Assembly (NCBI GenBank): GCA_951406725.2
Contig: OX597834.1
Coordinates: 124,001 to 188,000 of the forward strand
Length of the DNA stretch: 64,000 bases
DNA from: Octopus vulgaris
Lineage: Eukaryota
Direction: 5' to 3'
Shown here piece after piece: positions 3,917 through 62,452 of this stretch; the stretch's first letter is position 1; every line of letters begins with the position of its first letter. The translations under genes were made by a program, and so were the position numbers. Under the pieces are notes generated by a model. It did not search any database and was not told the DNA's origin. It saw only the letters and a list, made by a program, of their open reading frames with translations.

Positions 3917-4034
3917 CTGTAAACTGGCAGTTTCACTTTTTTGTACAGAGTTATCTTTCTTACGTCGACTACTGCCACGGCGAAGGAAACTGAATGAGCG
4001 CTGCCAAGTTGTCTTATCATGGTTCCTATCGACG
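3917..4034 (-). CDS. CACNA1A/B/E (Cav2, cac): Cav2 distal C-terminal exon (NVDRNHDKTTWQRSFSFLRRGSSRRKKDNSVQKSETASLQ)
   Basis: ttgttttcag acceptor, CAG|gtatgc donor. 118 nt, phase 2 to 0, continuing the frame of 6013-6125. Confidence 0.88.
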
Positions 4035-4730
4035 CTGAAAACAAAGCAAACCAGTATTAAGATACAGAAAAATAATTAGCTTAATATATATTTTCCCTAG
4101 CTTCACTGCAACATTTTCTAACTTGTATTTCTTCCTTTTCTATCTTTTGGCCTTTGTCTTCTCTCGTGTCTCTTTCCCATTTATAACCTCACTAACACAC
4201 TCTTGCCCCAATCACTCTTTCCCTGGCATCATTGTCTCTCTTCCATTTACCTTCTTGACTGGATAAAGACAACTCTTAGATGCTTGCCAGGAACAAGGCA
4301 ACTTCTAGTACTGATATCATGACATGAAGCCAGTAGGGGATAAGGGGGGGGGGCACCCAGCTATAGAGACTCTACCAAAACTGGTGTGTGTGTGTGAATG
4401 AAACATGGTCTGTGACCCCCATCCAGAAAGGCAACAACTCCTCCAAATCAGGAGAAAGACTGTGACAAACTGTCCAATCCATGCTCCAACATGAACAATG
4501 AGCAGAAATTGATGGGAATTTGAAAAATTAAAACATTGAGATCAAAATTAATAAAACAACAGTGCCATACACTTGATAACTCCTTATCTGAACATGGAAG
4601 CAGAAAGGGTTGAAATTTTGGATTTTAGTATTATTGAATATTTACATCTATAAAATCAAACAGCTTGCAAAGGAAACTGAAATTCTAAACATGTTATTAA
4701 GTCATATTTCATAATGCAGTTTAAGCATAC

Positions 4731-6012: not shown

Positions 6013-6125
6013 TTGTGACCTCCTTCTGTTTCATTGTCAGAATGTTCTGAATCAATACTCTGGCTTGAACGAGCAGATGGGGTCCTCATGACACCAATTA
6101 TCCGCTGGAAGAATGACGGTGGACG
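6013..6125 (-). CDS. CACNA1A/B/E (Cav2, cac): Cav2 distal C-terminal exon (RPPSFFQRIIGVMRTPSARSSQSIDSEHSDNETEGGH)
   Basis: (CT)n tract then ttag acceptor, gtaagt donor. 113 nt, phase 0 to 2, in frame with the IQ exon and the next exon. Confidence 0.88.
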
Positions 6126-20761: not shown

Positions 20762-20803
20762 TAAATAAATGGAGTTTAACGCAGGTGTAAATCAAATATT
20801 TTT

Positions 20804-20889
20804 ACTTTCGACACATGTTTCAAAAATTCCACTGATACTATTCAAAAGAATAAATGGTATAAACAATGCAATCTTCTCCTCAGGAAAGT
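20804..20889 (-). ncRNA. Type I hammerhead ribozyme in the Cav2 sense orientation
   Basis: Reverse complement of the motif above. The base pair of helix II next to the core is G-U instead of G-C. Confidence 0.7.
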
Positions 20890-21663
20890 GAAAAAAGCGA
20901 AACTTGTCAATAAGACATTTTAGCAAAAAATGATGGATTTGTATAGCGATTGACAGAACGCTATTAATATTGTTTAAAAAAACGTTATATGATATATAAT
21001 ACCATCCAACCCTCTAGAAATATTAATAACAAGGTTATTGTATCTGAAGTCAATTCCAATAGAATTAAGTTTATGTCAAGTAACTCTAAGATTAAAAATT
21101 CTATATACCAGTGTATAATCAGTACTCGTAATAAAGTACGATTTTACATTGGAAGCACATCGTTAGAGTTATCTAAAAGAATTTCTATCCATTACTCAAC
21201 ATTTAGGGATAGAAATAAAAGCAATAGTACCGGTCTCATCAAACTGATTTGGGATTTAAAAGACCACAATGAACAATTTCATTTAGAATGGTTGATTCTC
21301 TCAATTTCGATACCTTATGACAAAGGCAAGGAATTCTGTCTTCTCTGCAATTCTGAGCTATTTTTCATTATTTTTTCTAAAAATACTCTAGTAAACACGG
21401 TTATAGAGCGAGCATACAGATGTAAGCATAGGCAAAAACACACATTTAGTGCATATAAGTAGTCTCTATCATTATATATAATTTAAACTTTAATTTCCTT
21501 TATATTTAACATTCACTGTTAATATCCCTGCTCTTTCTGTTAGCTACTTATGACGTTATATCATATAACGTTTTTTTAAACAATATTAATAGCGTTCTGT
21601 CAATCGCTATACAAATCCATCATTTTTTGCTAAAATGTCTTATTGACGAGTTTCGTTTTTTTC

Positions 21664-21749
21664 ACTTTCCTGAGGAGAAGATTGCATTGTTTATACCATT
21701 TATTCTTTTGAATAGTATCAGTGGAATTTTCGAAACATGTGTCGAAAGT
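21664..21749 (+). ncRNA. Type I hammerhead ribozyme, canonical core
   Basis: Helix I ACTTTC/GAAAGT; CTGAGGA; helix II GAAGATTGCATTG/CAGTGGAATTTTC; GAAA; minimal helix III with palindromic ACATGT; GTC site, predicted cut after 21743. Confidence 0.8.
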
Positions 21750-21804
21750 AAAAATATTTGATTTACACCTGCGTTAAACTCCATTTATTTATTCATATAT
21801 TATT

Positions 21805-21851
<47 letters not shown>

Positions 21852-21893
21852 TAAATAAATGGAGTTTAACGCAGGTGTAAATCAAATATTTTT

Positions 21894-21979
21894 ACTTTCG
21901 ACACATGTTTCAAAAATTCCACTGATACTATTCAAAAGAATAAATGGTATAAACAATGCAATCTTCTCCTCAGGAAAGT
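21894..21979 (-). ncRNA. Type I hammerhead ribozyme in the Cav2 sense orientation (copy 2)
   Basis: Same sequence as 20804-20889. Confidence 0.7.
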
Positions 21980-22753
21980 GAAAAAAGCGAAACTTGTCAA
22001 TAAGACATTTTAGCAAAAAATGATGGATTTGTATAGCGATTGACAGAACGCTATTAATATTGTTTAAAAAAACGTTATATGATATATAATACCATCCAAC
22101 CCTCTAGAAATATTAATAACAAGGTTATTGTATCTGAAGTCAATTCCAATAGAATTAAGTTTATGTCAAGTAACTCTAAGATTAAAAATTCTATATACCA
22201 GTGTATAATCAGTACTCGTAATAAAGTACGATTTTACATTGGAAGCACATCGTTAGAGTTATCTAAAAGAATTTCTATCCATTACTCAACATTTAGGGAT
22301 AGAAATAAAAGCAATAGTACCGGTCTCATCAAACTGATTTGGGATTTAAAAGACCACAATGAACAATTTCATTTAGAATGGTTGATTCTCTCAATTTCGA
22401 TACCTTATGACAAAGGCAAGGAATTCTGTCTTCTCTGCAATTCTGAGCTATTTTTCATTATTTTTTCTAAAAATACTCTAGTAAACACGGTTATAGAGCG
22501 AGCATACAGATGTAAGCATAGGCAAAAACACACATTTAGTGCATATAAGTAGTCTCTATCATTATATATAATTTAAACTTTAATTTCCTTTATATTTAAC
22601 ATTCACTGTTAATATCCCTGCTCTTTCTGTTAGCTACTTATGACGTTATATCATATAACGTTTTTTTAAACAATATTAATAGCGTTCTGTCAATCGCTAT
22701 ACAAATCCATCATTTTTTGCTAAAATGTCTTATTGACGAGTTTCGTTTTTTTC

Positions 22754-22839
22754 ACTTTCCTGAGGAGAAGATTGCATTGTTTATACCATTTATTCTTTTG
22801 AATAGTATCAGTGGAATTTTCGAAACATGTGTCGAAAGT
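22754..22839 (+). ncRNA. Type I hammerhead ribozyme, canonical core (copy 2)
   Basis: Same sequence as 21664-21749. Confidence 0.8.
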
Positions 22840-22894
22840 AAAAATATTTGATTTACACCTGCGTTAAACTCCATTTATTTATTCATATATTATT

Positions 22895-27097: not shown

Positions 27098-27121
27098 CTC
27101 CTCAGAGTCTGAATATTGCAG
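27098..27121 (-). CDS. Candidate 24-nt in-frame microexon (LQYSDSEE)
   Basis: gttgcttcccctctgttttgaag|CTGCAATATTCAGACTCTGAGGAG|gtaact. Phase 0 to 0, pyrimidine tract with upstream TGC. Confidence 0.55.
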
Positions 27122-29253: not shown

Positions 29254-30947
29254 TGCAGCGTGGGAGGTGTTTATAAGCCATTTAAGAAACACACAAAAGC
29301 CGTTCGATTCACTCCAACATTTAAGTTTAATTTGTCAAAATATTTTCTTCGCTAAAATCCGCGACCTGTTCACTGACAAAGTCCGTGCTGCATCTAAGAA
29401 AGTAACAGTTAGTTCGTCATATATATGTATGTACGTATGTATGTGTGTATGTATGCATACATGTGTGTATGTATGTACGTATTCATGTCCGCACATACGC
29501 CTGTGTATGCATGTATGTATGTATGTATGTATATATGTATGTGTGTGTATAAGCACGCACATACACTCTATAAAACATAAAGTTATAAACCTGTAGCGAT
29601 GGATGGATGTAGAGTGACCACTCATCACAACGCTATCAAATTTCAACTCCCTACGGCCGAGGCTAGAAAGTGAATTTATGACGCTTGCTCACAAGAACTA
29701 TACCCTAAAATCTATTATCAGATTTTTATCTCTATATCACAGAACTAATGTTTTACTATTGTTCGTATGTATGTATGTATGTGCGTATGTATGTATGTAT
29801 GTATGTATGTATGTATGTATGTATGTATGTACATACGTACGCATGTGCGTATGTATGTATACGCGCCCGTATGCATGTGCCCATGTATGTGTGTGTGTAC
29901 ATGTACGTGCGTATGTACGTGTGTATGCCCATACGTAGGTATGTATGTATGTTTGTATTCATGTGCTACGTATGTATGTGAGTGTCTAGGAGAATGGGCA
30001 GATGTGTCCGTGAGAGTGTGTACATGTGTATGTGTATGTGAACGTATGTCCGTGTACACGGACATACGTTCACATACACATACACATGTCCGTGTACACG
30101 GACATACGTTCACATACACATACACATGTCCGTGTACACGGACATACGTTCACATACACATACACATGTACACACTCTCACGGACACATCTGCCCATTCT
30201 CCTAGACACTCACATACATACGTAGCACATGAATACAAACATACATACATACCTACGTATGGGCATACACACGTACATACGCACGTACATGTACACACAC
30301 ACATACATGGGCACATGCATACGGGCGCGTATACATACATACGCACATGCGTACGTATGTACATACATACATACATACATACATACATACATACATACAT
30401 ACATACATACGCACATACATACATACATACTACGAACAATAGTAAAACATTAGTTCTGTGATATAGAGATAAAAATCTGATAATAGATTTTAGGGTATAG
30501 TTCTTGTGAGCAAGCGTCATAAATTCACTTTCTAGCCTCGGCCGTAGGGAGTTGAAATTTGATAGCGTTGTGATGAGTGGTCACTCTACATCCATCCATC
30601 GCTACAGGTTTATAACTTTATGTTTTATAGAGTGTATGTGCGTGCTTATACACACACATACACATACATATATACATACATACATACATACACAGGCGTA
30701 TGTGCGGACATGAATACGTACATACATACACACATGTATGCATACATACACACATACATACGTACATACATATATATGACGAACTAACTGTTACTTTCTT
30801 AGATGCAGCACGGACTTTGTCAGTGAACAGGTCGCGGATTTTAGCGAAGAAAATATTTTGACAAATTAAACTTAAATGTTGGAGTGAATCGAACGGCTTT
30901 TGTGTGTTTCTTAAATGGCTTATAAACACCTCCCACGCTGCAATTGT
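29249..30947. repeat. ~1.7 kb near-perfect palindrome (arms 29249-30055 / 30136-30947) with a 40-bp unit x3 at the centre
   Basis: Mirror ORFs on opposite strands: 29267+ / 30618- and 29678+ / 30110-. Centre unit cgtgtacacggacatacgttcacatacacatacacatgtc. Confidence 0.95.
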
Positions 30948-31003
30948 TTTCGTTTCAGCACACGATCTCAGATCAAATTACTTGCTATGCGAGTACATCT
31001 CCG

Positions 31004-32250: not shown

Positions 32251-34954
32251 AGATATACCACAGGATTTACAAAACTATAATAAGAGATAATATATGAAAC
32301 ACAAACTCAAAGAATGTGATAAATGCCTACCACATGAGATATGAATATATCATACGCCAAATAGATATGGCTCACATATAATATGAATCATAACTACACC
32401 ATGTAAAACAAATATATTTATCACATAAGACATATTTATCACACAAAACCTATATTCATCACATAAAATATATTTATCACTGAGAAAATATCACAGCCCG
32501 GGAAGTGGAAATGATTTTGAGGGAAAAACAAAAATGACAAAAATCTCAGAATTTTAGTCATCTAACTTTGTAATCATGCTATAAAATAGTGAAAGTGTTA
32601 GTCTCTAATAAATCTATTCTCAACTGGGATGCTTTATAGGAAAATTACATCAAATTCCATGAGTGATATAGGAGCAGAGCTTACGTTTGGTTTCTGTCAC
32701 TTGAATCATTTGAGAGGTAAATCTCCTCCTGGATACATTAGTCTAACCCTGACCTGGTGAACTTACATCCTTTTGGAAGAAGTCTGGGTTTTACATGAGA
32801 AAATACATTTCAGCTGATTCTATAATATTAATTGCAATGTTGTTAAATTGTCTGCTAAATGTCCATAAAAATTAGCCACTGAAGACTTCCTTTATATGGC
32901 TAACAAGAGATGGACATCTAGAAGACCACCTGAACACATAGATGGCTAGGTTGCTCTATATACAAATGTTGTCCCAGAGAAAAATGTTTTCACCAAAATT
33001 ATTAAAAGGTCAGTTTATGTTTGCTTTTTTTACTTATTATAATAAATGAGAAATTTATAATTACATTTTCACAATAAATGTAATTACTTTTTCTATAATT
33101 TTAAAATAGAATTTTTTAAAGATTTCTTTTCTAAGACTTAACCCAAAGTGGCTTTCAAGTAAGTTCCCTATGTTTTCCTCAGTCACAATGAACTTTTCTA
33201 GCAAACCAACTAGACTCTTGTCAGTTCTATGGTAGAGTGCTTCCCACCTCACAGCAGCAAGTAAAAGTATTGAGGTGGTGACTGTGAGGAGACCTTCCTG
33301 ATGACAAACAATAAAATGTCAACCTTTTTAGTAAGACGAATCAGACTCAGAAGAGCAACAAAGACTTTCAAGTGGTGCTTAGTAGCAGGTTTTTCAATGC
33401 TGATTTCAAATTCCATGTTGCTTTTCTATGCCCACCACCAACAGCAAGGTTGATGAACTAAAACACCCAGCACATACTTGGGTCAATGTAATGAACAACA
33501 GGTGTTCTCTAAGGTTCTTCAAGCAAGAAACTGTGGCTGAAGATCCTGAAAATAACTTCTTAATGATTTAAGGGCAAATATGATCCACAGCAGTCCTCTA
33601 TAGAGCAGTGACCCTACTACTACAGGTAGTGTTATCTTTGAAAGACAGTTATAAAGCAATGTCTCACAATTCCTATAATTAAAGGGGTTTGTGGCACATC
33701 CAATCTTGGGCCCAATACAAGAGTTAACTTGACCAAGCAACATTTCATTAGAATTACATGTTTTTTTCTTATTTCAGCAATATTCACAACGATAAGAAAA
33801 AGACCATTTAATAAATATGATAATTTTAATGAATTAACCAATTAATAGTCTATAAAATAATTTCATCAAACATGAGAGTATTGGTTAATTTCAGTCTTAA
33901 AATTAATTCCAACCTTAATAAACCTTTCAACATCAACCTGTCCTTGTTCTTACAATACAAAACCGTTCATTTTTAAGTGTTCATATTTTAATCAAAACTT
34001 TCCAACATAATTTTCTCCAAGAACCTTTCATCATGTTATATTCCAAACACCAGATTCATAATGGCTAAGAGATTTCGTCAAATTCTGCGAAATTCTTGAT
34101 TATTTTGCAAACTAATCAAAAATCAAACGCTACGTTTCACAAGAAATATGACCTGGAAAGACTAATTTAATTTCACTTTTGAACATCATTTACTTAGATA
34201 TAATTGAACTTAAGTAAATTATTAATTATAATCTGTTCAGTAACTATAACTGTCATTCATAAACTCCAGCCGACTTGTAGAGCAACCGACTCTCATGCAG
34301 TAAACTTGTTCTCTGCTTCCGAATGAGGACGAATCCAAGAACAACAGATTTCACAGTTAACAGAAACAATAGCCAGAGCTTTCATTCAAATAACTCAGTC
34401 CTTCAAACTGTATGTTAACAGTCTTTTAAAACTGAAAGAATGTCTTAAATAAGTATTGTATACTGTAAACTTACAGAGAAGAAAGAAATGTCAATATTAA
34501 AAGTGAGAACCTCAAGTCTCACCTGATATTTCTAATAGGGTTCTTAGTATCCACGTGCTATTTTAGAATCATAAACTATAAAACTCTCAAATTAAGACAA
34601 ACACATCAATTAATGCCAAATCTTATGTCTTTTAATTAAGGTAGGATCCTATATGTGTTAATTAAGGTTGGATTCTGAGCTTTTTAAATCAAAGTAGAAT
34701 CCTACTGTTTTTCGAATTATAACACTTCAATTAACATGAAAACGAACTGCATAAAATTATATAGAAACATACAAACATTTATATGCACATACACACAAAA
34801 ACATATATACACTAATATTAAATGTACACACAGCTACACATATGTATTCCAATATATATGTACAAACATACATACTTTATAGGGATGAATATCTTACAGG
34901 CTGCAAGTTTGTTTCATTGAACAACCATATAAATTGTGAAATGAGTTTGTAGCC

Positions 34955-36645
34955 CAATGCTTCTCGTTCGCGGTTGAGTTCTACCAGCAGTGCTCGGGAG
35001 TGGCCATGGGAACAAGAATGGGCCCCAACTATGTTGAGGCCCAAATATTCTCTAGTTTCACTGGTCCCACTCTCGAACTATATGGCCATTATATTGACGA
35101 CTGTATCGGTGCCTCCTCACTCTCCCGCGAACATCTAGACTCCTTCCTCTCTTTCGTCCAATCTTTCCATCCTGCCCTCCACTTCTCCTGCACTATCTCT
35201 GACACTTCTGTCTCCTTTCTTGACATTTCAGTCAGCATTCATCACTCCATTCTTACCACCTCCATCCACTACAAACGCACAGACTCACACTCATACCTAA
35301 ACTTCTCCTCCTCCCACCCCAAACACACCAAACTTTCCATCCCCTATTCCCAATTCCTCCGTCTACACAGGCTCTGTAGTGACGACCATGACTTTGAAAT
35401 TCAGTCTCAACTCATGGCTCGCCACTTCATCCTACGTGGATATCCCCTAACCACTATCCACACCGCCCTTGCCAGAGCACGTTCCATGGACCGTGCATCT
35501 GCTCTCTCCCTCCAAACCCGCCCTGCAGTCTCCCGCCTCCCTTTTCCCCTCACCTACCACCCCACCATCCTACCTCTCCAATGCACCAGTCTCCGAGCTT
35601 TCCGGCATCTCCAGTCTGACCCATCCACTTCACACATCTTCCCTAACCGACCCTCCCCTCCTTCAAACGAGCCCACAACCTACGAGACCTCTTGGTCCAC
35701 AGCTTCTTCCCCAACCCTACCTCCCAACCTGGCTCATTCCCCTGCCCCCGCCCATGCTGCTGCACTTGCCTTTACCTCTCCAACACCACTCTCCTCACCG
35801 GCACCCATCATCGACCCTATCGCATCATCGACTCCTTCACCTGCACCTCCAGCAATATCATCTATTGCATCTCCTGCTCTCTCTGCCATTCCCTGTACAT
35901 CAGACAAACGGGACGCCACTTGGCTGACCGGTTCTCAGAACACCTCCGAGACATCTGCTTCGGCAATGACACCCCGGTCTCATGCCATTTCCGCTCCACT
36001 GGTCACTCCTTGCAACACCTGTCTGTGTCTGGATTGTCTTTGCACAGAGGCCATCCGGACTCCCGTTTGTGCCGTGAACAGGGATTAATCTTCTCTCTTC
36101 GCTCTTTTATGCCATTTGGGCTCAACTCTCCTCCCCTCTTCATCTAACTTCCTCCCCGACTCCTACTTCTCTTCACTCCTACATCTTTTCACCCCTACTC
36201 TCTTTCTCTCTGCTCCCTCACTCTCCTCTCCCCATCCCTCCTCCTTCTTCCCACCCAACTCTCCTCTCTTGCCCTGACTCCTACTTCTCTTCACTCCTAC
36301 TTCTCTTTCCCTCTTCTTTCCTACTCTCTTTCTCTCCCCTCTTCTCTCTCATTCTCTTTCTCTCTTACTCTTTCACTCTTCCCTCCTCCTCTCTCTTCAC
36401 TTTGTTATCTCCCCTACTTTCCTTCTCCAGTGTGACCCTTCTGTCCGAGTCAGATGCCATGATAGATCGTTAGCCACTACACACATTTGTTTTCTCTCCT
36501 TCTTTTCTGTGTCCCTTTCTGTAGAAGAGCGTAGGCTCGAAACGTAAAAGACTTTTTCTATTCCTGAGCGTTATACTAATACATCTGTTTGTTTTGTACA
36601 CCACTCGTCTTTGTCTTTTGATGTTTTTCTTGTAAACTCTCCATA
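34955..36645 (+). mobile_element. 5'-truncated Penelope-like retroelement (Neptune-like): RT, Cys-rich linker, GIY-YIG, 3' pLTR; frameshifted pseudocopy
   Basis: GVAMGTRMGPNY, YIDDC, FLDISV, SSSHP..K.SIPYSQFLRL, CPRPCCCTC and NIIYCISC...YIRQTGR.L..RFSEH. Hammerhead-like GAAGAGCgtagGCTCGAAACGT at ~36511-36552. Confidence 0.93.
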
Positions 36646-38249
36646 TATATATATACTACACACACACACACACTCACACATATATATATATATAAACTAA
36701 TATAAATGTACAAACATGCAAATACTGATATACACTTATTTATTTAAATATATGCATGTATGATTTTTCTTTGAGTTTTATGTAGGTTCTCCTTGAGAGA
36801 GTTCAAGCTTGTATCTAACAAAGCTAGAAGACTTTTTGAGTTACGAGAGTTCCTAGTGTTTATAAATATGTTGAACTGGTTGAACTGTCAATGCACACAT
36901 CCAAGTGTGTGTATTCACATTTTTGGAATAGATTGGATTTGGGGAATCTGCATCAGTTTCTAATGTGTGTGTGTGTGGTTGAATGTGTGCAAATAAAACA
37001 AACTAATACATTTATGTATCAAAATTGCTGATATTAATAAAAAAGATAATAGACATTATAAGAACCAATTTTGTGAGAGGAAAGTGCAGTAGGCTTGCTG
37101 ATAGGACTGAACCACAAATCTCTAGCATTCTGGGTCACTGATGGGATTTCAACTACAAATCTACAAGTTACTGCATGAGTTACAGATTAGGTGTCCAAAT
37201 GTTTCGCAATACAACAATGTGCAAGTTTTTACTATATTTCTGGAAAATATTAGTCTGTGAGTTGGGGAGTGTTTGGAAACATTAGTGTTTAGGATGGAGA
37301 CTTTGAAAGTTCTATGGCTAGGCATGAAGACTTTGGAAAGTCCTGTCATCATGGATGGGATTTGAACTCAGAACACAAAGGATAATATTAAAGAACATTC
37401 TTATTCAAATGTCACTGACAATAATCTATATGAAATTCTGAAATTCCTTGAAGAAATTGTGTCACATCCATACCTGCTGAAAGCGAAACTGTTGTCCATT
37501 TAATCTAAGGCAAGGAGAATGAACTGGAATCTTATGATACTTGGTGCAGGGTTCAAACTCCTGAGTCTCGATCTAATTAAGGAACACAAGAAGTACAAAC
37601 GACATCCATACAATATAGTTAGAAAGTTTGCCTCCAATAAGAAACGGAAAAAGTAATCATAGTCTTGGTGTTAACAATGTCAGAGTTACAAATTTAGAGA
37701 ATTATTAAGATTATGAATAAAATCATAATAATGTTGAATTTTCATAACTATTAACAGGAAAAATAGATATCACAAGACCTGAAATGACAAAGGGGACAAA
37801 AGTAGGCAATTAGACTGACCCTTATACATGACTTGTAATTATAGTATCTACTGCAGTTGTCTAAAAGGAAAAGGTGACCTTGGTGAGAAATGAACATAAG
37901 ACCTATGGGTAGGCAAGTGAATACCACAAGGCATTTCATCCATCACTCCACTGCCAATCCACCAACAAGATTAATATATTCATTTTTCACTTAGGCACAA
38001 AGGCACAAGAGGGTTGAAGAAGGCTAGGTTGACCCCAGTATATAACTGATAGTCTATTTCATCAAGCTTGGATGGATAAAGAACAAAATTAACTTGACGA
38101 TTAACTTAGAACCTAAATAATTACAGCAAAACATTCTGTTCATCATTTTAGTAATTCTGCCAATTTACTAATAAGATTAATTAAGTAATTCAAAAGTAAT
38201 TCTTTGAAAACATGTTACATAAATAAATATCTTATTCTTCATATTGCTT

Positions 38250-43466: not shown

Positions 43467-44204
43467 TTGCTTACTTGAATGACAAGTTGAGTTTTCTTAC
43501 CATGTGGATGAAGCAACATGCATAGTTGATCCGTGCACAACATAAGAAAGGGTTGTAAACACAGAGAAAATAGATTACAAGTTTAATGAAAACATGTTGG
43601 GTTTTTAATTATCAGTTTCGTTTAGAACCAGATTTGAAATGTTAACAAGTTGATAGCTTTAACTAAACTTTACGAAAAACAATATGGTTAGGACATATTT
43701 CTTGTTTTGGTCTAGCTAGAAGAGATAAGTAAATGATAAAAACTATAGAAAAATAATTCCACCACAACATGCAGAATAAAAGAAGAAAAAATAAGATAAA
43801 ATTCCTCATTGATTGTAAGAGCTACAGCAAAAGGGACAAAAACTATATTTTGGAAACTAGCACAAATCACTGCAATACTTGCAAAATGGATAAAAAAAAA
43901 AACAAACCTACAATGAATGAGAAATAAAGGACAAGGACTACAAAGACTTTCGACTGGTTTTTATGATAAAATGGACTACGTTCTCAATGCACTTACACTG
44001 GTGAGAAAAATTGGTTGAAGAAAAAGTGTTTTCAACTACTTGGGTCACAAGCAATTTAAAATGAGGTAGGTGCATAAATATGGATAACTTGTGACAGCAT
44101 AAATTCGGATAATAGAGTTGAAGAGGATGGAGGCAGACTGGTGTAACTTAAATTCCAGATGCAATTTAGGTGTGCCAGAGTAATTGGAGTGTATTCAGTC
44201 ATAC

Positions 44205-44348
44205 CTGATTATAGTCCTCATCATAATCTTTATAATCCTCTTGATACTCCTGATAATCTTTATAATCCTCGTGATACTCTTCGTCATCGTGATATTCTTT
44301 ATAATCATCGTCATCACGATATTCCTTAATATCATCCTCCCAGAACAA
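44205..44348 (-). CDS. Candidate 144-nt in-frame cassette exon, acidic Tyr-rich (LFWEDDIKEYRDDDDYKEYHDDEEYHEDYKDYQEYQEDYKDYDEDYNQ)
   Basis: ttttctgatttcaag acceptor, CAG|gtatga donor, phase 0 to 0. Codon-structured D/E/Y repeat with no stop. Confidence 0.7.
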
Positions 44349-44603
44349 CTTGAAATCAGAAAAGTTGAACAAATCAGATACATTCAAAATTTCAACAAGA
44401 AACGTAAAGCTCTTCGACATCACAGCTGTAGATTACTCTCCAAAGGCCATAGAATGTGTGTGCATGTATATATAATATATATATTCACATATACACATAA
44501 ACAAAAAAATGTACAAGGTACTTATATAAATACACATATAACTTAATAATCTAAAGATTGGTCTTATATATATATATATATGGATATACATATTTATATG
44601 TAT

Positions 44604-56549: not shown

Positions 56550-56564
56550 CTCTTCTTTTTTCTC
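56550..56564 (-). CDS. Candidate 15-nt in-frame microexon of Cav2 (EKKEE)
   Basis: ttttttgcag|GAGAAAAAAGAAGAG|gtcagt. Phase 0 to 0, matching the flanking exons. Confidence 0.55.
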
Positions 56565-57067: not shown

Positions 57068-57177
57068 CATTTTTAAACTATTATTCTGGTTTTGACTAGC
57101 TTTGTAAGCTCGCCAGTTTTCAGCTACTAAAAGTCCAGTGTAGATTTTTCCAACTGTCAATTTCCGATCGTTTAATT
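57068..57177 (-). CDS. CACNA1A/B/E (Cav2, cac): Cav2 IQ-like exon (ELNDRKLTVGKIYTGLLVAENWRAYKASQNQNNSLKM)
   Basis: 110 nt, ttttttcag/gtaagt, phase 1 to 0. TVGKIY followed by an invertebrate Cav2-style IQ-like segment, rather than the Cav1 TVGKFYA..LIQ. Confidence 0.96.
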
Positions 57178-57919
57178 CTGAAAAAAAACCCAATATTTTC
57201 CAGTGATTACAGGGAGAAAAAAAAAACATCTGATTGAAAATGTGAGATAAAAAGTAGTTTCAGTGACTATTTCACCTTAGATCAGACCTCGTCAAGCACA
57301 TCTATAATTAAAACTCTTCTGACCATAGCCATCTAGCACTATTTTAAATTTAAAGGGAATGTGAGTGCATGTATGGAGGTGGGGGATGAAGGAGATTAGG
57401 CTGCTATTTCTAGTAGGGTAAGCATCTTCTAGGTTAAAAACAGATCAAAAGAGTTGTAGTAAACTGTAAAATATGTCATAACATTTTATAGTGATCTAAG
57501 AAAAATAATGGCAAGATTATGTTACACTGATGAGATAGAAAAAGACTGAAACAAGTATGGAGTTATCACTGACAAACTCTCAGCCCACATCATATTTTTA
57601 ATTAATTAAAATTTCTAAGCTGACTTCCCTTTCTTGATACTATAATAATTGAGATCATGAATGTTTCAATCAGGTACAAGAGTAATTTTATTTAACTGTA
57701 GCAATTAGTTGAAAATAAAAACTTTATAGTAATTAATGAGGATATATTATAAACATAATTAACTTCCCTATATATAGTTGTCCCTTGTTTTATATGTGAG
57801 TCATCATGCAAATTGAAATTGTGTAAATCAACGGTGTTAAAAGAAAATTTTAATAATTTTAAATTATTAAATTTAAAATTTAAATAATTATTTATTGAAA
57901 TTAGGACAATAAATTATTG

Positions 57920-58991: not shown

Positions 58992-59096
58992 CATGGTTTG
59001 GAGGAACAAGAAGATCTACAATTTTTTTCCCATGTACAGGCCACACCCGTTTGATGACTTCTCGCATTTCTTCATCTTTCCTATCCATTTCATCAG
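58992..59096 (-). CDS. CACNA1A/B/E (Cav2, cac): Cav2 pre-IQ exon (ADEMDRKDEEMREVIKRVWPVHGKKIVDLLVPPNH)
   Basis: 105 nt, ttttacag/gtaagt, phase 1 to 1. Conserved WP...K..DLLVPP motif. Confidence 0.96.
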
Positions 59097-59520
59097 CTGT
59101 AAAAGACAAGCAAAATTAATCATTTGAGACAATTACTTGGCATTAAAGAAGAATTGTTAATAAATTATATGGAAACAGAATGTTATAGCCTTTCTTTTAT
59201 TCCATTTTTTATTGGAACGGTGCAATGATGATGTAGCCAAAGTCTTCACCAGACCCTGTCAATTGATGTTGCGTTTTAATAGATGTCAGAAAAAAATGTG
59301 AAGAGAGGGGTAATTCCATAGTGACCGATATTCTGGGGAAGAAGTCCTGCATGGGGAAGGATGATAAAATATGGTTAATAAAGTGAGTTTGAAATGTTTG
59401 TGTGGTGATGGAAGGAGAGGCAACAGCAATAAGGGACGAAGGCCAGAGTTGTAGCAACAGAATAGAATAGAGAGCAAAGAGATACTCTCCTCCCCCATGT
59501 TGAGCAGAGGTTGGACTTAC

Positions 59521-59626
59521 CTGAACTTATTTTTATTGACAAGGACTCTCGCACTAAAGCAAAAAGGGTTGTTGAAAAGTGTACAGTTCCATCTTCATTT
59601 ACTGGCATATTCATTCGTATCAATTT
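59521..59626 (-). CDS. CACNA1A/B/E (Cav2, cac): Cav2 exon ([35 protein letters not shown])
   Basis: 106 nt, gtgcag/gtaagt, phase 0 to 1. Conserved pre-IQ motif, also visible in ORF 59375..59632. Confidence 0.97.
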
Positions 59627-59857
59627 CTGCACAACAGAAAAACAAACATAGCTCGAAATTGATGTTACTTTTTGGTTTGTTTAAAACCGAATGCAAATCC
59701 ATGAACACAACCATTCGTTTTACTTGAATTAGATATTTTACAAATAGAATCTGAGTAAGAGCCAAATGTACCGCTTTAAATTAAAGGTGATGTTTACAGT
59801 TTAAGTAGTTTATAAAAAAAGGCAAAATAACAGAGAACAAACTTGAAAACCACATAC

Positions 59858-59954
59858 TCTATAGGCCAATCTGTAGGGGCAATTTTTCCCAAAACCTACA
59901 GGTGGCTCCATTCTCTTCAACATTTCGTACATGTCAGTGTAATGTATTCTCCCT
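59858..59954 (-). CDS. CACNA1A/B/E (Cav2, cac): Cav2 EF-hand exon ([32 protein letters not shown])
   Basis: 97-nt exon, ttttacag/gtatgt, phase 2 to 0, in frame with its neighbours. GRIHY..MY.ML..M.PP.GFG..CP.R.AY is Cav2-type. Confidence 0.97.
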
Positions 59955-60621
59955 CTGTAAAAAGAATATTATCAAAGAAATAATCTGATAGAAAATAATG
60001 TTGAGTAATTCAAAACTGAATAATTCCAAAGTTAAATGAAGAAAAGAGCAGAAACATGAAGACGTAGTAATGTTGATTAAAACCTGTTTATTAAATGATA
60101 GCAATTAAAATTTGTTTATTAAACAGCAATAATTGAAACTTACATATCAAATGACATAACTCTGGGTTTGAGAAATGAATTTATTTCTAATGGGTTTGTT
60201 AAGGTGGAAGAGCAGTAGTTCTGACCGATTTCAAGGTCTTGAAAACTGGTCAGAGGAAAGGAAATGGCAGCCAATTGTCAAGTGGTAGAGTATATCTACC
60301 ATCCAAGAAGAGGAAAGAACTTTCTGATTGGAATCCACACAGTTTCTGTGAAATAAATTCATGAGACTTTGGCTGTCTCAAAATTTGAACCTACAACTGA
60401 ACACTCTTGCTTCTAAAAATCTAACCTAATGGAACACTGTTGTGAAGCAAACTTCTTAACCACACAGCCATGCCCACCTCTTGATGCATTCACTGATAAT
60501 CTCATCATAATTTCCCTTTTCTAAACTCTCTAACAGATCACATAGCAGCTGCTGACCACAAGCAAATTATTAAAATAACTAATAATAATTACTGGTATCT
60601 AGTTTATGTTGAAACCCAGTA

Positions 60622-62125
60622 TCGTAAAAACCCATGTAATTTGCGCAACTGTGTGATTTACGCAGGTGATTTTCAGGATAAAAGTTGTTAAAAAAGGCTT
60701 CAACTCATGTAAAATTCACCCCCAAAAGTTTTCAGGATTGCCGATATGGCCAGGGAGAAAAGGTTTTGAATTTAGTTGTATTTAGCATAATTTCACTTAT
60801 TTATGACTAGATTTTATTAAATTTTCATTAAATAAAAATAATTTCTGTTTAACAGGTATCACATAGAAAGCTATTAAATTACAAAATGTTTGTGTTGTTT
60901 ATAATAAACTTGATTTTACTTTTCTTGCCCGCAAGAGATTATGTTTGATCTTTAGCATACTTCTGTCTTTTCAAATCACGATCACAGGGTAAGTTGTTGA
61001 AAATTCTTACCAACAAAAACAAAGCTGATAAATATGCACAAGTGTTGCCAATTAAGTTTAATTACCAATAAACAACAGCTTGGATGAAACTTTACTCAAC
61101 CGACAGAGGAAGGTGACTGATCAAACTGATTATGTAAACAGATTTCTGATTGGTCGAAAGTGTCTTCTTGTCTCAAGCTCTGATTTTCTGCTTATTCTTG
61201 TCAGAACCTTTGATATGGTGTATTGAAATTTTAATCCCTTTCACACTTATAAAATGTTAAGCAAACTTTAAAATTTGTCATTACCGTTTTAGCCGGGAGA
61301 CCAAACTATCTGTTTGGTAACCCACTGAAATAGACATTTTGCAATGTTTATTGAAAAAGAGAGGTGCGAAATTTAAGAAGTGACTTGTTAGAATATACAC
61401 GTCTGTGAGGAGACATAAACAAGAATAGCAAAAATCTACTCTACCAAAAGAACTGGTAATACATGCATTACAAGTGTTCTATGAAGAGAACATAAGATTG
61501 CTGTGTAATTCAACATGAATGTGAAATGCCATTAAACATCGTATAAGGTAAATGAAGGTTTCTGTAAGAACACCAAGTCATATTCACTTAGTGAGTTTAC
61601 ATGCACCAGGACGAATTATGATGTTGGTGTAGTCAACATTAGATGCAGTAATCAAGCTGATAGCGGCGATATTGGTGGTGAGGAATTTCACTGTGTCATA
61701 ACATGGAGAAAGTGAGCAAATAGCTTCCTGGTGCAAATGCAAGCTAGACTCCCTAAGCGGAGAAAAACTGATCTATTTAAACAAATTTCTGGGCTCCATT
61801 ATGATAGGTAGAAACTCCAAGTAATGTAAAATATAGCCCAGACCATGATTACCAGCATGAATGTCAAACTTCAAAAAGTAGTTAACCATTTAATGCTTTT
61901 AGTAAATTTATGCAGAAAAAGTAAGCATTATACTGTCCAACATAAATAAAAATCAACTTCATTATATTTTTTCTGTAAAAACCTATTCTGACATTAAATG
62001 ATTCAACTTCCCGTCCGTCATTTTCCAACAAAATGCTGGAAACGATCTACTTATGTGATTTATGCACCCTAAGGTTTGTTTTTGTTTTTGTAAAAAAAGT
62101 GCATAAATTACGTGGGTTTTTACAG
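60622..62125. mobile_element. Non-autonomous Tc1/mariner/pogo-type DNA transposon (~1.5 kb)
   Basis: TA-tcgtaaaaacccatgtaatttgcgca ... tgcataaattacgtgggtttttacag-TA. ~26-bp imperfect TIRs, no long ORF. Confidence 0.8.
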
Positions 62126-62324
62126 TAATTTTGAAGGGAGGGAATTTGAACTCAAAATATAAAGAGCAGAACAGAAACTACAGAACCGTTTTTTTTTTCC
62201 TGATGATTCTATAGTTTGCATCCACTTTCAGATGAAGTCATTTGCCAAATAAGTTCCATTCAAATATATTTCAATAAAAGACAGAGAAAAATTTAGTTGA
62301 AATAAAAAGTTGACAAGCACTTAC

Positions 62325-62452
62325 GTTGCAACAGGGTCATATTCAGCCCAAACTCTGTTATATTCGTCTAAATGATGTGGACCAAGAATTGAACTATCTC
62401 TTGTTAGATAGTCAAAGTTGTCCATAATTACGGCAACGAAAAGATTAAGCAT
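62325..62452 (-). CDS. CACNA1A/B/E (Cav2, cac): Cav2 calcium channel alpha-1 exon: end of IVS6 and start of C-terminus ([42 protein letters not shown])
   Basis: Hand translation gives the near-invariant HVA channel motif. Acceptor ttttacag, donor gtaagt. 128 nt, phase 0 to 2. Confidence 0.97.

Follow-up and report, generated by a model that had tools for sequence, protein, structure and literature searches.

A tyrosine-rich acidic exon at the post-IQ splice site of the Octopus vulgaris Cav2 calcium channel gene

A stretch of 144 nucleotides on contig OX597834.1 of Octopus vulgaris encodes a peptide so rich in Asp, Glu and Tyr that it raises two questions: whether it is a genuine exon of the surrounding Cav2 calcium channel gene and, if so, what such a segment could do in the channel tail. 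The window analysed here comprises 64,000 nucleotides (assembly GCA_951406725.2, positions 124,001 to 188,000 of the contig), and all coordinates refer to it. The original prediction, made from the letters alone, had proposed a lineage-specific cassette exon just after the IQ region, acting as a tyrosine-kinase/SH2 platform, as a low-affinity Ca2+ binder or as an acidic competitor for the basic IQ helix. The segment is a known exon at a known splice hotspot, it is spliced, and it is conserved between octopus and squid; we consider it almost certainly a functional, selected exon of the Cav2 alpha1 subunit.

Boundaries, composition and host gene of the acidic exon

The exon occupies positions 44205-44348 on the minus strand. 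Translation of 44348-44205 gave 48 residues in frame, with 14 Asp and 9 Glu (23 acidic residues) and 10 Tyr, exactly the counts first put forward, and a net charge of -18. A pyrimidine-rich tract ending in AG precedes it and GTATGA follows. With canonical AG/GT sites, phase 0 at both ends, a length divisible by three and an open frame, it has the properties of a frame-preserving exon, as had been claimed, and it is found in database proteins and spliced contigs. The internal duplication described earlier was also recovered: repeat finders reported 1.9 copies (96%) of a unit 30 nt long (44223-44279), along with additional degenerate copies. The second codon position is A in 43 of the 48 codons, so that part of the composition may reflect an origin from a trinucleotide repeat; GAT and TAT together account for 21/48 codons, and all 10 Tyr codons are TAT.

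An artefact or a chance open reading frame was considered as the identity of the segment and rejected. In the 51-kb minus-strand interval from the IQ exon to the RPPSFF exon, a scan brought out three open segments that lie in phase 0 between AG and GT, measure 15-300 nt and contain 30% D/E or more (EKKEE, the acidic exon and LQYSDSEE); all three are exons of database proteins, which argues that the acidic exon is more than a product of chance. An Ile/Leu-rich frame on the plus strand was discarded as an antisense shadow of the repeat, the splice sites and homologues being on the minus strand. Within the 64-kb window the exon is present in a single copy (best other blastn match, 22 nt), with no sign there of a dispersed repeat.

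Domain and structure searches with the exon returned no Pfam family at E up to 0.1, EF-hand included, no PDB chain at E up to 10 and no match in the ESM Atlas, blanks that speak neither for novelty nor for absence. In an AlphaFold2 model that is weak throughout (mean pLDDT 46.9) the exon was predicted as coil, with pLDDT 33-40. Its aromatic residues recur with a periodicity of 105-109 degrees (shuffle p 0.002-0.006), a figure to which the squid Cys at position 39 contributes and which the internal repeats inflate; a helix was therefore not accepted on periodicity alone.

A peptide search with the exon retrieved, among 15 candidates, two proteins containing it; both are models of Octopus Cav2 in which it stands at 100% identity, and proteins of O. 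bimaculoides and O. sinensis match it without a difference. The Octopus Cav2 model P0003 passes the Pfam cut-offs for Ion_trans, GPHH and Ca_chan_IQ, its exons align with the window at 97-100% (tblastn), and it ends, like P0004, in a C-terminal DDWC ligand; the top matches are annotated as Cav2 (type A alpha-1). All the exons of this gene that are listed here lie on the minus strand. Tblastn of database proteins located four codon-bounded upstream exons within 58993-62452 (IVS6 end/EF-hand, 62452-62324; 59953-59858; pre-IQ, 59626-59522 and 59097-58993), followed by the codon-bounded IQ-like exon at 57068-57178, with net charge +3 (Pfam Ca_chan_IQ spans P0003 residues 506-584). At least four optional exons occupy the 51 kb between the IQ exon and the optional, mollusc-conserved RPPSFF exon (codon-bounded, 6015-6125; tblastn): the 15-nt EKKEE microexon (56550-56564; AG/GT), the acidic exon, a 99-nt IETQ...FQQ exon (37474-37572; AG/GT, phase 0/0), and the 24-nt acidic microexon LQYSDSEE (27098-27121; AG/GT), which is 8/8 identical in squid and present in O. 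sinensis isoforms X1 and X2. Further downstream lies an optional basic exon with the RSFSFLRRGSSRRKK stretch (3917-4035; tblastn; net +6), and the distal Cav2 tail has a net charge of +27 with 46 Arg. The location just after the IQ region held: this is a post-IQ Cav2 exon, starting 21 residues after the IQ-exon Trp. One correction is that it does not adjoin the IQ exon in the four sequencing runs described below, in all of which EKKEE is spliced between the two.

Several other elements of this gene were noted. The intron stretch 27151-27122 (minus strand), just 5' of LQYSDSEE, is identical at 17 of 18 residues on read-through in a cuttlefish-like contig (P0006), which suggests a conserved splicing-control element, and 21 nt before the LQYSDSEE acceptor there is a UGC; we found no paper on the control of octopus microexons in the searchable literature. 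Within an intron, at 34940-36147 (plus strand), a reverse-transcriptase-like ORF with a YIDD motif overlaps a GIY-YIG-like ORF, presumably as remnants of a decayed Penelope-like element. Near-identical tandem blocks of about 1 kb, with identical 164-aa ORFs, lie in an intron beside very long TA arrays (20792-21761 and 21882-22851, and 29335-30977) and are either a recent duplication or an assembly artefact. Outside the window, residues ~754-764 of the Octopus model P0005 form a second, short optional acidic/aromatic insert in the distal tail (4 Tyr, 2 Phe and 4 D/E per 11 residues) that is absent from P0003.

The exon was already known from UniRef and RefSeq models and from Table 1 of Dunn et al. 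(2018; PMC5818475), where a "Large insert (LFWED...NQRP)" is given for Octopus bimaculoides Cav2 (KOF72120.1). The entry refers to this very exon, its name being taken from the initial residues and from the join to the RP exon, and classes it among alternative inserts of the C terminus; the post-IQ splice site of the insert is known in Aplysia, oyster and fly, with optional exons there. The available text of that paper is silent on the composition, squid conservation, junction partners and function of the insert. In a full-text search with peptide words of the exon this was the sole calcium-channel paper, the others dealing, by their listing, with friction welding and cytokine receptors. Neither a functional study of the exon nor an account of its composition or octopus-squid conservation was found in the searchable literature, outside of which lie most subscription papers, including the original squid cloning work.

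Conservation of the exon and of its splice site

The Heterololigo bleekeri record BAA13136.2 (P0010), which we take to be a cloned cDNA, contains a 48-residue squid copy of the exon with 36 identical residues (75%). All 23 acidic positions are acidic in both animals, 7 of the 12 substitutions being exchanges between Asp and Glu, and 9 of the 10 Tyr are kept, with no change of Tyr to Phe. The neighbouring IQ and RPPS exons are identical at 31/37 and 33/37 residues, and the IETQ exon at 20/33 (61%), the squid counterpart being the segment next after the acidic exon. In Argonauta, the third distinct version available for comparison, the exon is expanded by added Asp (poly-Asp) to 65 residues and a net charge of -30 with 10 Tyr kept, which fits conservation of charge over fold.

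These comparisons bear on the possibility that a trinucleotide repeat was exonised and has been tolerated as a near-neutral spacer. The poly-Asp expansion of Argonauta and the bias towards A in the second codon position and towards GAT and TAT would be expected of such a spacer, and Aplysia cassettes are described as having little effect in the available text of two studies (PMC10657410, PMC5818475). It would not, on the other hand, be expected to have the same length in octopus and squid, nor to share every acidic position, 9/10 Tyr and 75% of its residues between them while the IETQ cassette falls to 61%. Its inclusion in 4/4 runs also counts against a spacer, with the limit that these runs were chosen for containing the exon. 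We regard the spacer as very unlikely.

The lineage-specific character attributed to the exon was upheld. Among the fetched Cav2 proteins, a set that leaves out Nautilus, it was confined to those of Octopus, Argonauta and the squid Heterololigo; 203 non-cephalopod Cav2 tails contained no 48-residue window of matching composition. A search of 1.84 billion representatives gave 55 matches, of which two extended over the exon: an octopus Cav2 model and a 73-aa ORF made up of this exon. As for the post-IQ site, 36 distinct inserts were tabulated there, and the 21 distinct non-empty ones from non-cephalopod molluscs all have a net charge of -3 to -10; EEKEE, EEKDE and VEDKEE, in gastropods and bivalves, are the counterparts of EKKEE. 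These acidic microexons of gastropods and bivalves (EEKDE, VEDKEE, LEEHDE) share site and negative charge with the octopus exon but lack a Tyr repeat, and none was seen to be homologous in sequence to the 48-aa exon. Non-acidic inserts are found at the same site in sea urchin (-1 to +1) and in one nemertean (+1).

The squid record looks heavily edited at the RNA level. Outside the exon, 9 of its 18 private differences are compatible with A-to-G changes, as compared with 6 of 43 in an octopus control (Fisher p=0.007). Within the exon, the differences K17R, H20R and Y39C are likewise A-to-G compatible and may be RNA edits, as read from the cDNA record alone. In the conserved EF-hand/pre-IQ region of the record (residues 1493-1554), A-to-G changes could account for 4/4 private differences, one of which replaces Tyr by Cys.

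Splicing of the exon in sequencing runs and gene models

The exon stretch was present in 20 of 24 listed sequencing runs. Contigs of four of them, from four studies, chosen for holding the exon and carrying no RNA label on record, were mapped on 971 bases (43470-44440), a stretch that excludes the flanking exons and in which skip junctions could not show. Positions 44205-44350 were covered in all four runs, intron cover was absent in three, and contigs stopped at the exon edges with other Cav2 exons as loose ends in 4/4 runs. This exon-limited cover and the exon-to-exon ends indicate that the exon is included in spliced RNA, in agreement with its proposed membership of Cav2 mRNA. The upstream loose end, compared by eye, was in every run the end of the IQ exon plus EKKEE. 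Downstream, the exon was joined to the PSEK exon in two runs and to the NQAN exon in one; the fourth run gave two contigs with a mixed consensus that fits PSEK plus SIEM, tentatively since these exons lie outside the window. In the readable junctions of the four runs the RPPSFF, IETQ, LQYS and basic exons were never joined to the acidic exon, the RPPSFF and basic exons being bypassed; RPPSFF is bypassed also in P0003 and P0005. Junctions of the acidic exon with the RPPSFF, IETQ or LQYS exons do occur in the squid record and in several Octopus models. The mapped contigs of the four runs showed no base that differs from the window, which is still compatible with editing.

The exon is likely a cassette. 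It was present in all seven fetched O. bimaculoides models with the IQ exon and skipped in a cuttlefish-like multi-exon contig protein (P0157) and in O. vulgaris and Sepia gene models, the skip form being directly seen only outside Octopus RNA. Contigs in two of the four Octopus runs begin 30 nt before the exon, which suggests a branch but may reflect unspliced RNA. The acidic and basic exons are not mutually exclusive, as both are present in the squid record and in O. sinensis models.

In one of the four runs (X10), a 756-nt contig continued from the exon into the intron stretch after its donor (43479-44204, minus strand), with a depth of 13.9 versus 49.3 for the exon contig and no cover of the upstream intron. 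Read-through past the donor yields one Val followed by a stop, and the Argonauta Cav2 model ends at the equivalent Val. The contig end is probably an assembly break, since a TA microsatellite lies 18 nt away. The contig could be a truncated Cav2 lacking the RIM/RIM-BP sites or, equally well, nascent RNA.

The motif YxxPhi is of the sorting type, and the last Tyr of the exon (44205-44216) forms it with the LQYS exon, with the IETQ exon or on read-through, and does not with the PSEK, NQAN or RPPS exons. The exon might accordingly serve trafficking or isoform choice, its last Tyr making YxxPhi only if Leu, Ile or Val follows and read-through ending the channel before the RIM/RIM-BP sites. The read-through contig and the Argonauta end would agree with this, although the former, which ends at a microsatellite, may represent nascent RNA ahead of an intron of great length, and the latter a truncation of the model. 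Support comes also from truncated Aplysia Cav2, reported in the available text to reach the membrane with a smaller synaptic contribution (PMC10657410), and from the deletion of exon 34 of the fly gene cac, which cut the protein by 80% (as cited in PMC12370356). Nevertheless, none of the readable spliced junctions makes YxxPhi, which in any case needs one Tyr and not ten, and we think it very unlikely that this is what the exon is for. Exon 34 of Drosophila cacophony, 68 aa in the middle of the tail, is itself optional in an invertebrate Cav2 and has an effect on the level of the protein (PMC12370356); the likeness is one of description, with no positional equivalence implied.

Possible roles of the acidic segment in the channel tail

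The pattern [D/E]-Y-x-[D/E] recurs along the exon, with an acidic residue at -1 of 10/10 Tyr and at +2 of 9/10 (9/9 and 8/9 in squid). An acidic context favours Src/Syk-type kinases, and the exon could be mainly a multi-site substrate of such tyrosine kinases, a graded input added to the known inhibition of Cav2 through a single EF-hand Tyr, whether or not SH2 domains dock there. ITAM and SH2 sites are defined by a phosphotyrosine followed either by Leu, Ile, Val, Met or Phe at +3 or by Asn at +2. Neither arrangement was found at any of the 10 Tyr inside the exon, which therefore holds no ITAM, Src-SH2 or Grb2-type site, and the last Tyr gains Leu, Ile or Val at +3 with some downstream exons only. 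The SH2 part of the proposal is weakened by this, while the kinase-substrate part fits the 10/10 Tyr that follow an acidic residue, as well as the conservation of 9/10 Tyr without replacement by Phe. Src-dependent inhibition of a molluscan Cav2 through an EF-hand Tyr has been described in Aplysia (PMC5818475, in its available text), which lends the kinase explanation a precedent. Against it, the 10 Tyr share the codon TAT and have arisen with the repeats; the searchable literature yielded no phosphorylation data on them. We judge a kinase substrate to be unlikely as the main role.

The charge of the exon could alternatively make it a low-affinity Ca2+ binder at the inner mouth of the channel, in which the carboxylates would be neutralised and the Tyr perhaps folded onto one helix face, forming a calmodulin-independent local switch or buffer. 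A role of this kind would suit the net charge per residue (-0.35 to -0.46) and the aromatic periodicity, the latter inflated by the repeats. The exon is nonetheless predicted as coil and matches neither the EF-hand nor any other Pfam family, and the free exchange of Asp and Glu between octopus and squid speaks against a fixed coordination geometry, leaving the Ca2+ binder with a slim chance.

The reading that we favour, plausible though somewhat short of probable, is that the exon contributes an acidic/aromatic segment without fixed fold, which would bind to basic stretches of the tail or to basic partners and so tune calmodulin regulation or trafficking. Its inclusion puts a predicted-disordered, strongly negative chain with spaced Tyr about 20 residues past the IQ-like helix, and the property under selection would be the pattern of charge and the spacing of the Tyr, not a fold. 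Binding to basic parts is favoured by the charge of the IQ-like exon (+3), the basic exon (+6) and the distal tail (+27), any of which could be the partner, as could basic proteins. Splicing would step the post-IQ charge from 0, through the small acidic microexons, to about -20, and Tyr phosphorylation or A-to-I recoding could fine-tune it; once bound, the segment would tune calmodulin-dependent gating or the trafficking of the channel. The acidic inserts of other molluscs lend indirect support to the initial idea of an acidic competitor for the basic IQ helix.

The DCRD of the Cav1 C-terminal modulator is acidic. The modulator of Cav1.3 and Cav1.4 (PCRD/DCRD) provides a precedent for tuning by a tail segment, being likewise under splicing control and damping calmodulin-dependent inactivation through an intramolecular contact (PMC3234942, in its available text). 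The likeness is one of analogy, without a claim of homology: the DCRD is a distal helix in Cav1, whereas the octopus exon is a proximal, repeat-built segment of Cav2, close behind the IQ-exon Trp and predicted, with low confidence, as coil. Also in favour of tuning, Lymnaea Cav2 is reported to be without buffer-resistant CDI (PMC8980814).

Several observations count against tuning by charge, namely the non-acidic inserts of Aplysia, sea urchin and nemertean, the A in position 2 of so many codons, and the joint presence of acidic and basic exons. Exons 45-48 of Aplysia Cav2 resemble the octopus arrangement in being optional exons directly after the IQ exon, in that splicing can leave out the RP block and continue with the DFS exon, and in their different use between cell types (PMC10657410). 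The Aplysia short inserts are neutral or basic and Tyr-free (DPVRLPK, +1; NHNEK, 0, in the supplement of the same paper), whereas in Octopus the RP exon is preceded by four or more optional exons, among them the one with a net charge of -18. According to the available text of PMC10657410, synaptic depression and its reversal were unchanged whether exons 45-48 were all in or all out, which counts against a strong effect; the initial PSP did differ, in small samples (11.2 versus 18.3 mV, P=0.038, n=4,5). Aplysia splice forms were pooled in PMC5818475 for lack of differences.

A more elaborate version, which we find quite unlikely, would have coleoids turn the acidic post-IQ microexons into a combinatorial charge switch, in which a ten-Tyr exon of -18 to -30 often replaces the conserved basic Arg/Ser-rich exons, acts as a built-in calmodulin competitor or as a Ca2+-folded acidic helix, and has its effect adjusted by phosphorylation of Tyr and by A-to-I recoding (of Tyr39 to Cys and of Lys17 and His20 to Arg). 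If this were so, it would represent a splice-controlled brake resembling the C-terminal modulator, of independent origin, plus a read-through form ending before the active-zone anchors. Should the exon tune calmodulin regulation or synaptic delivery, as we favour, this would matter for the squid giant synapse and for octopus learning circuits, and the exon would offer a clean natural test of whether tail charge beside the IQ region sets the behaviour of Cav2.

DYKxxD is the core of the anti-FLAG M2 epitope, and residues 38-43 of the exon (44220-44237, minus strand) fit it; cross-reaction with this antibody could confound work with tagged channels or serve as a probe.
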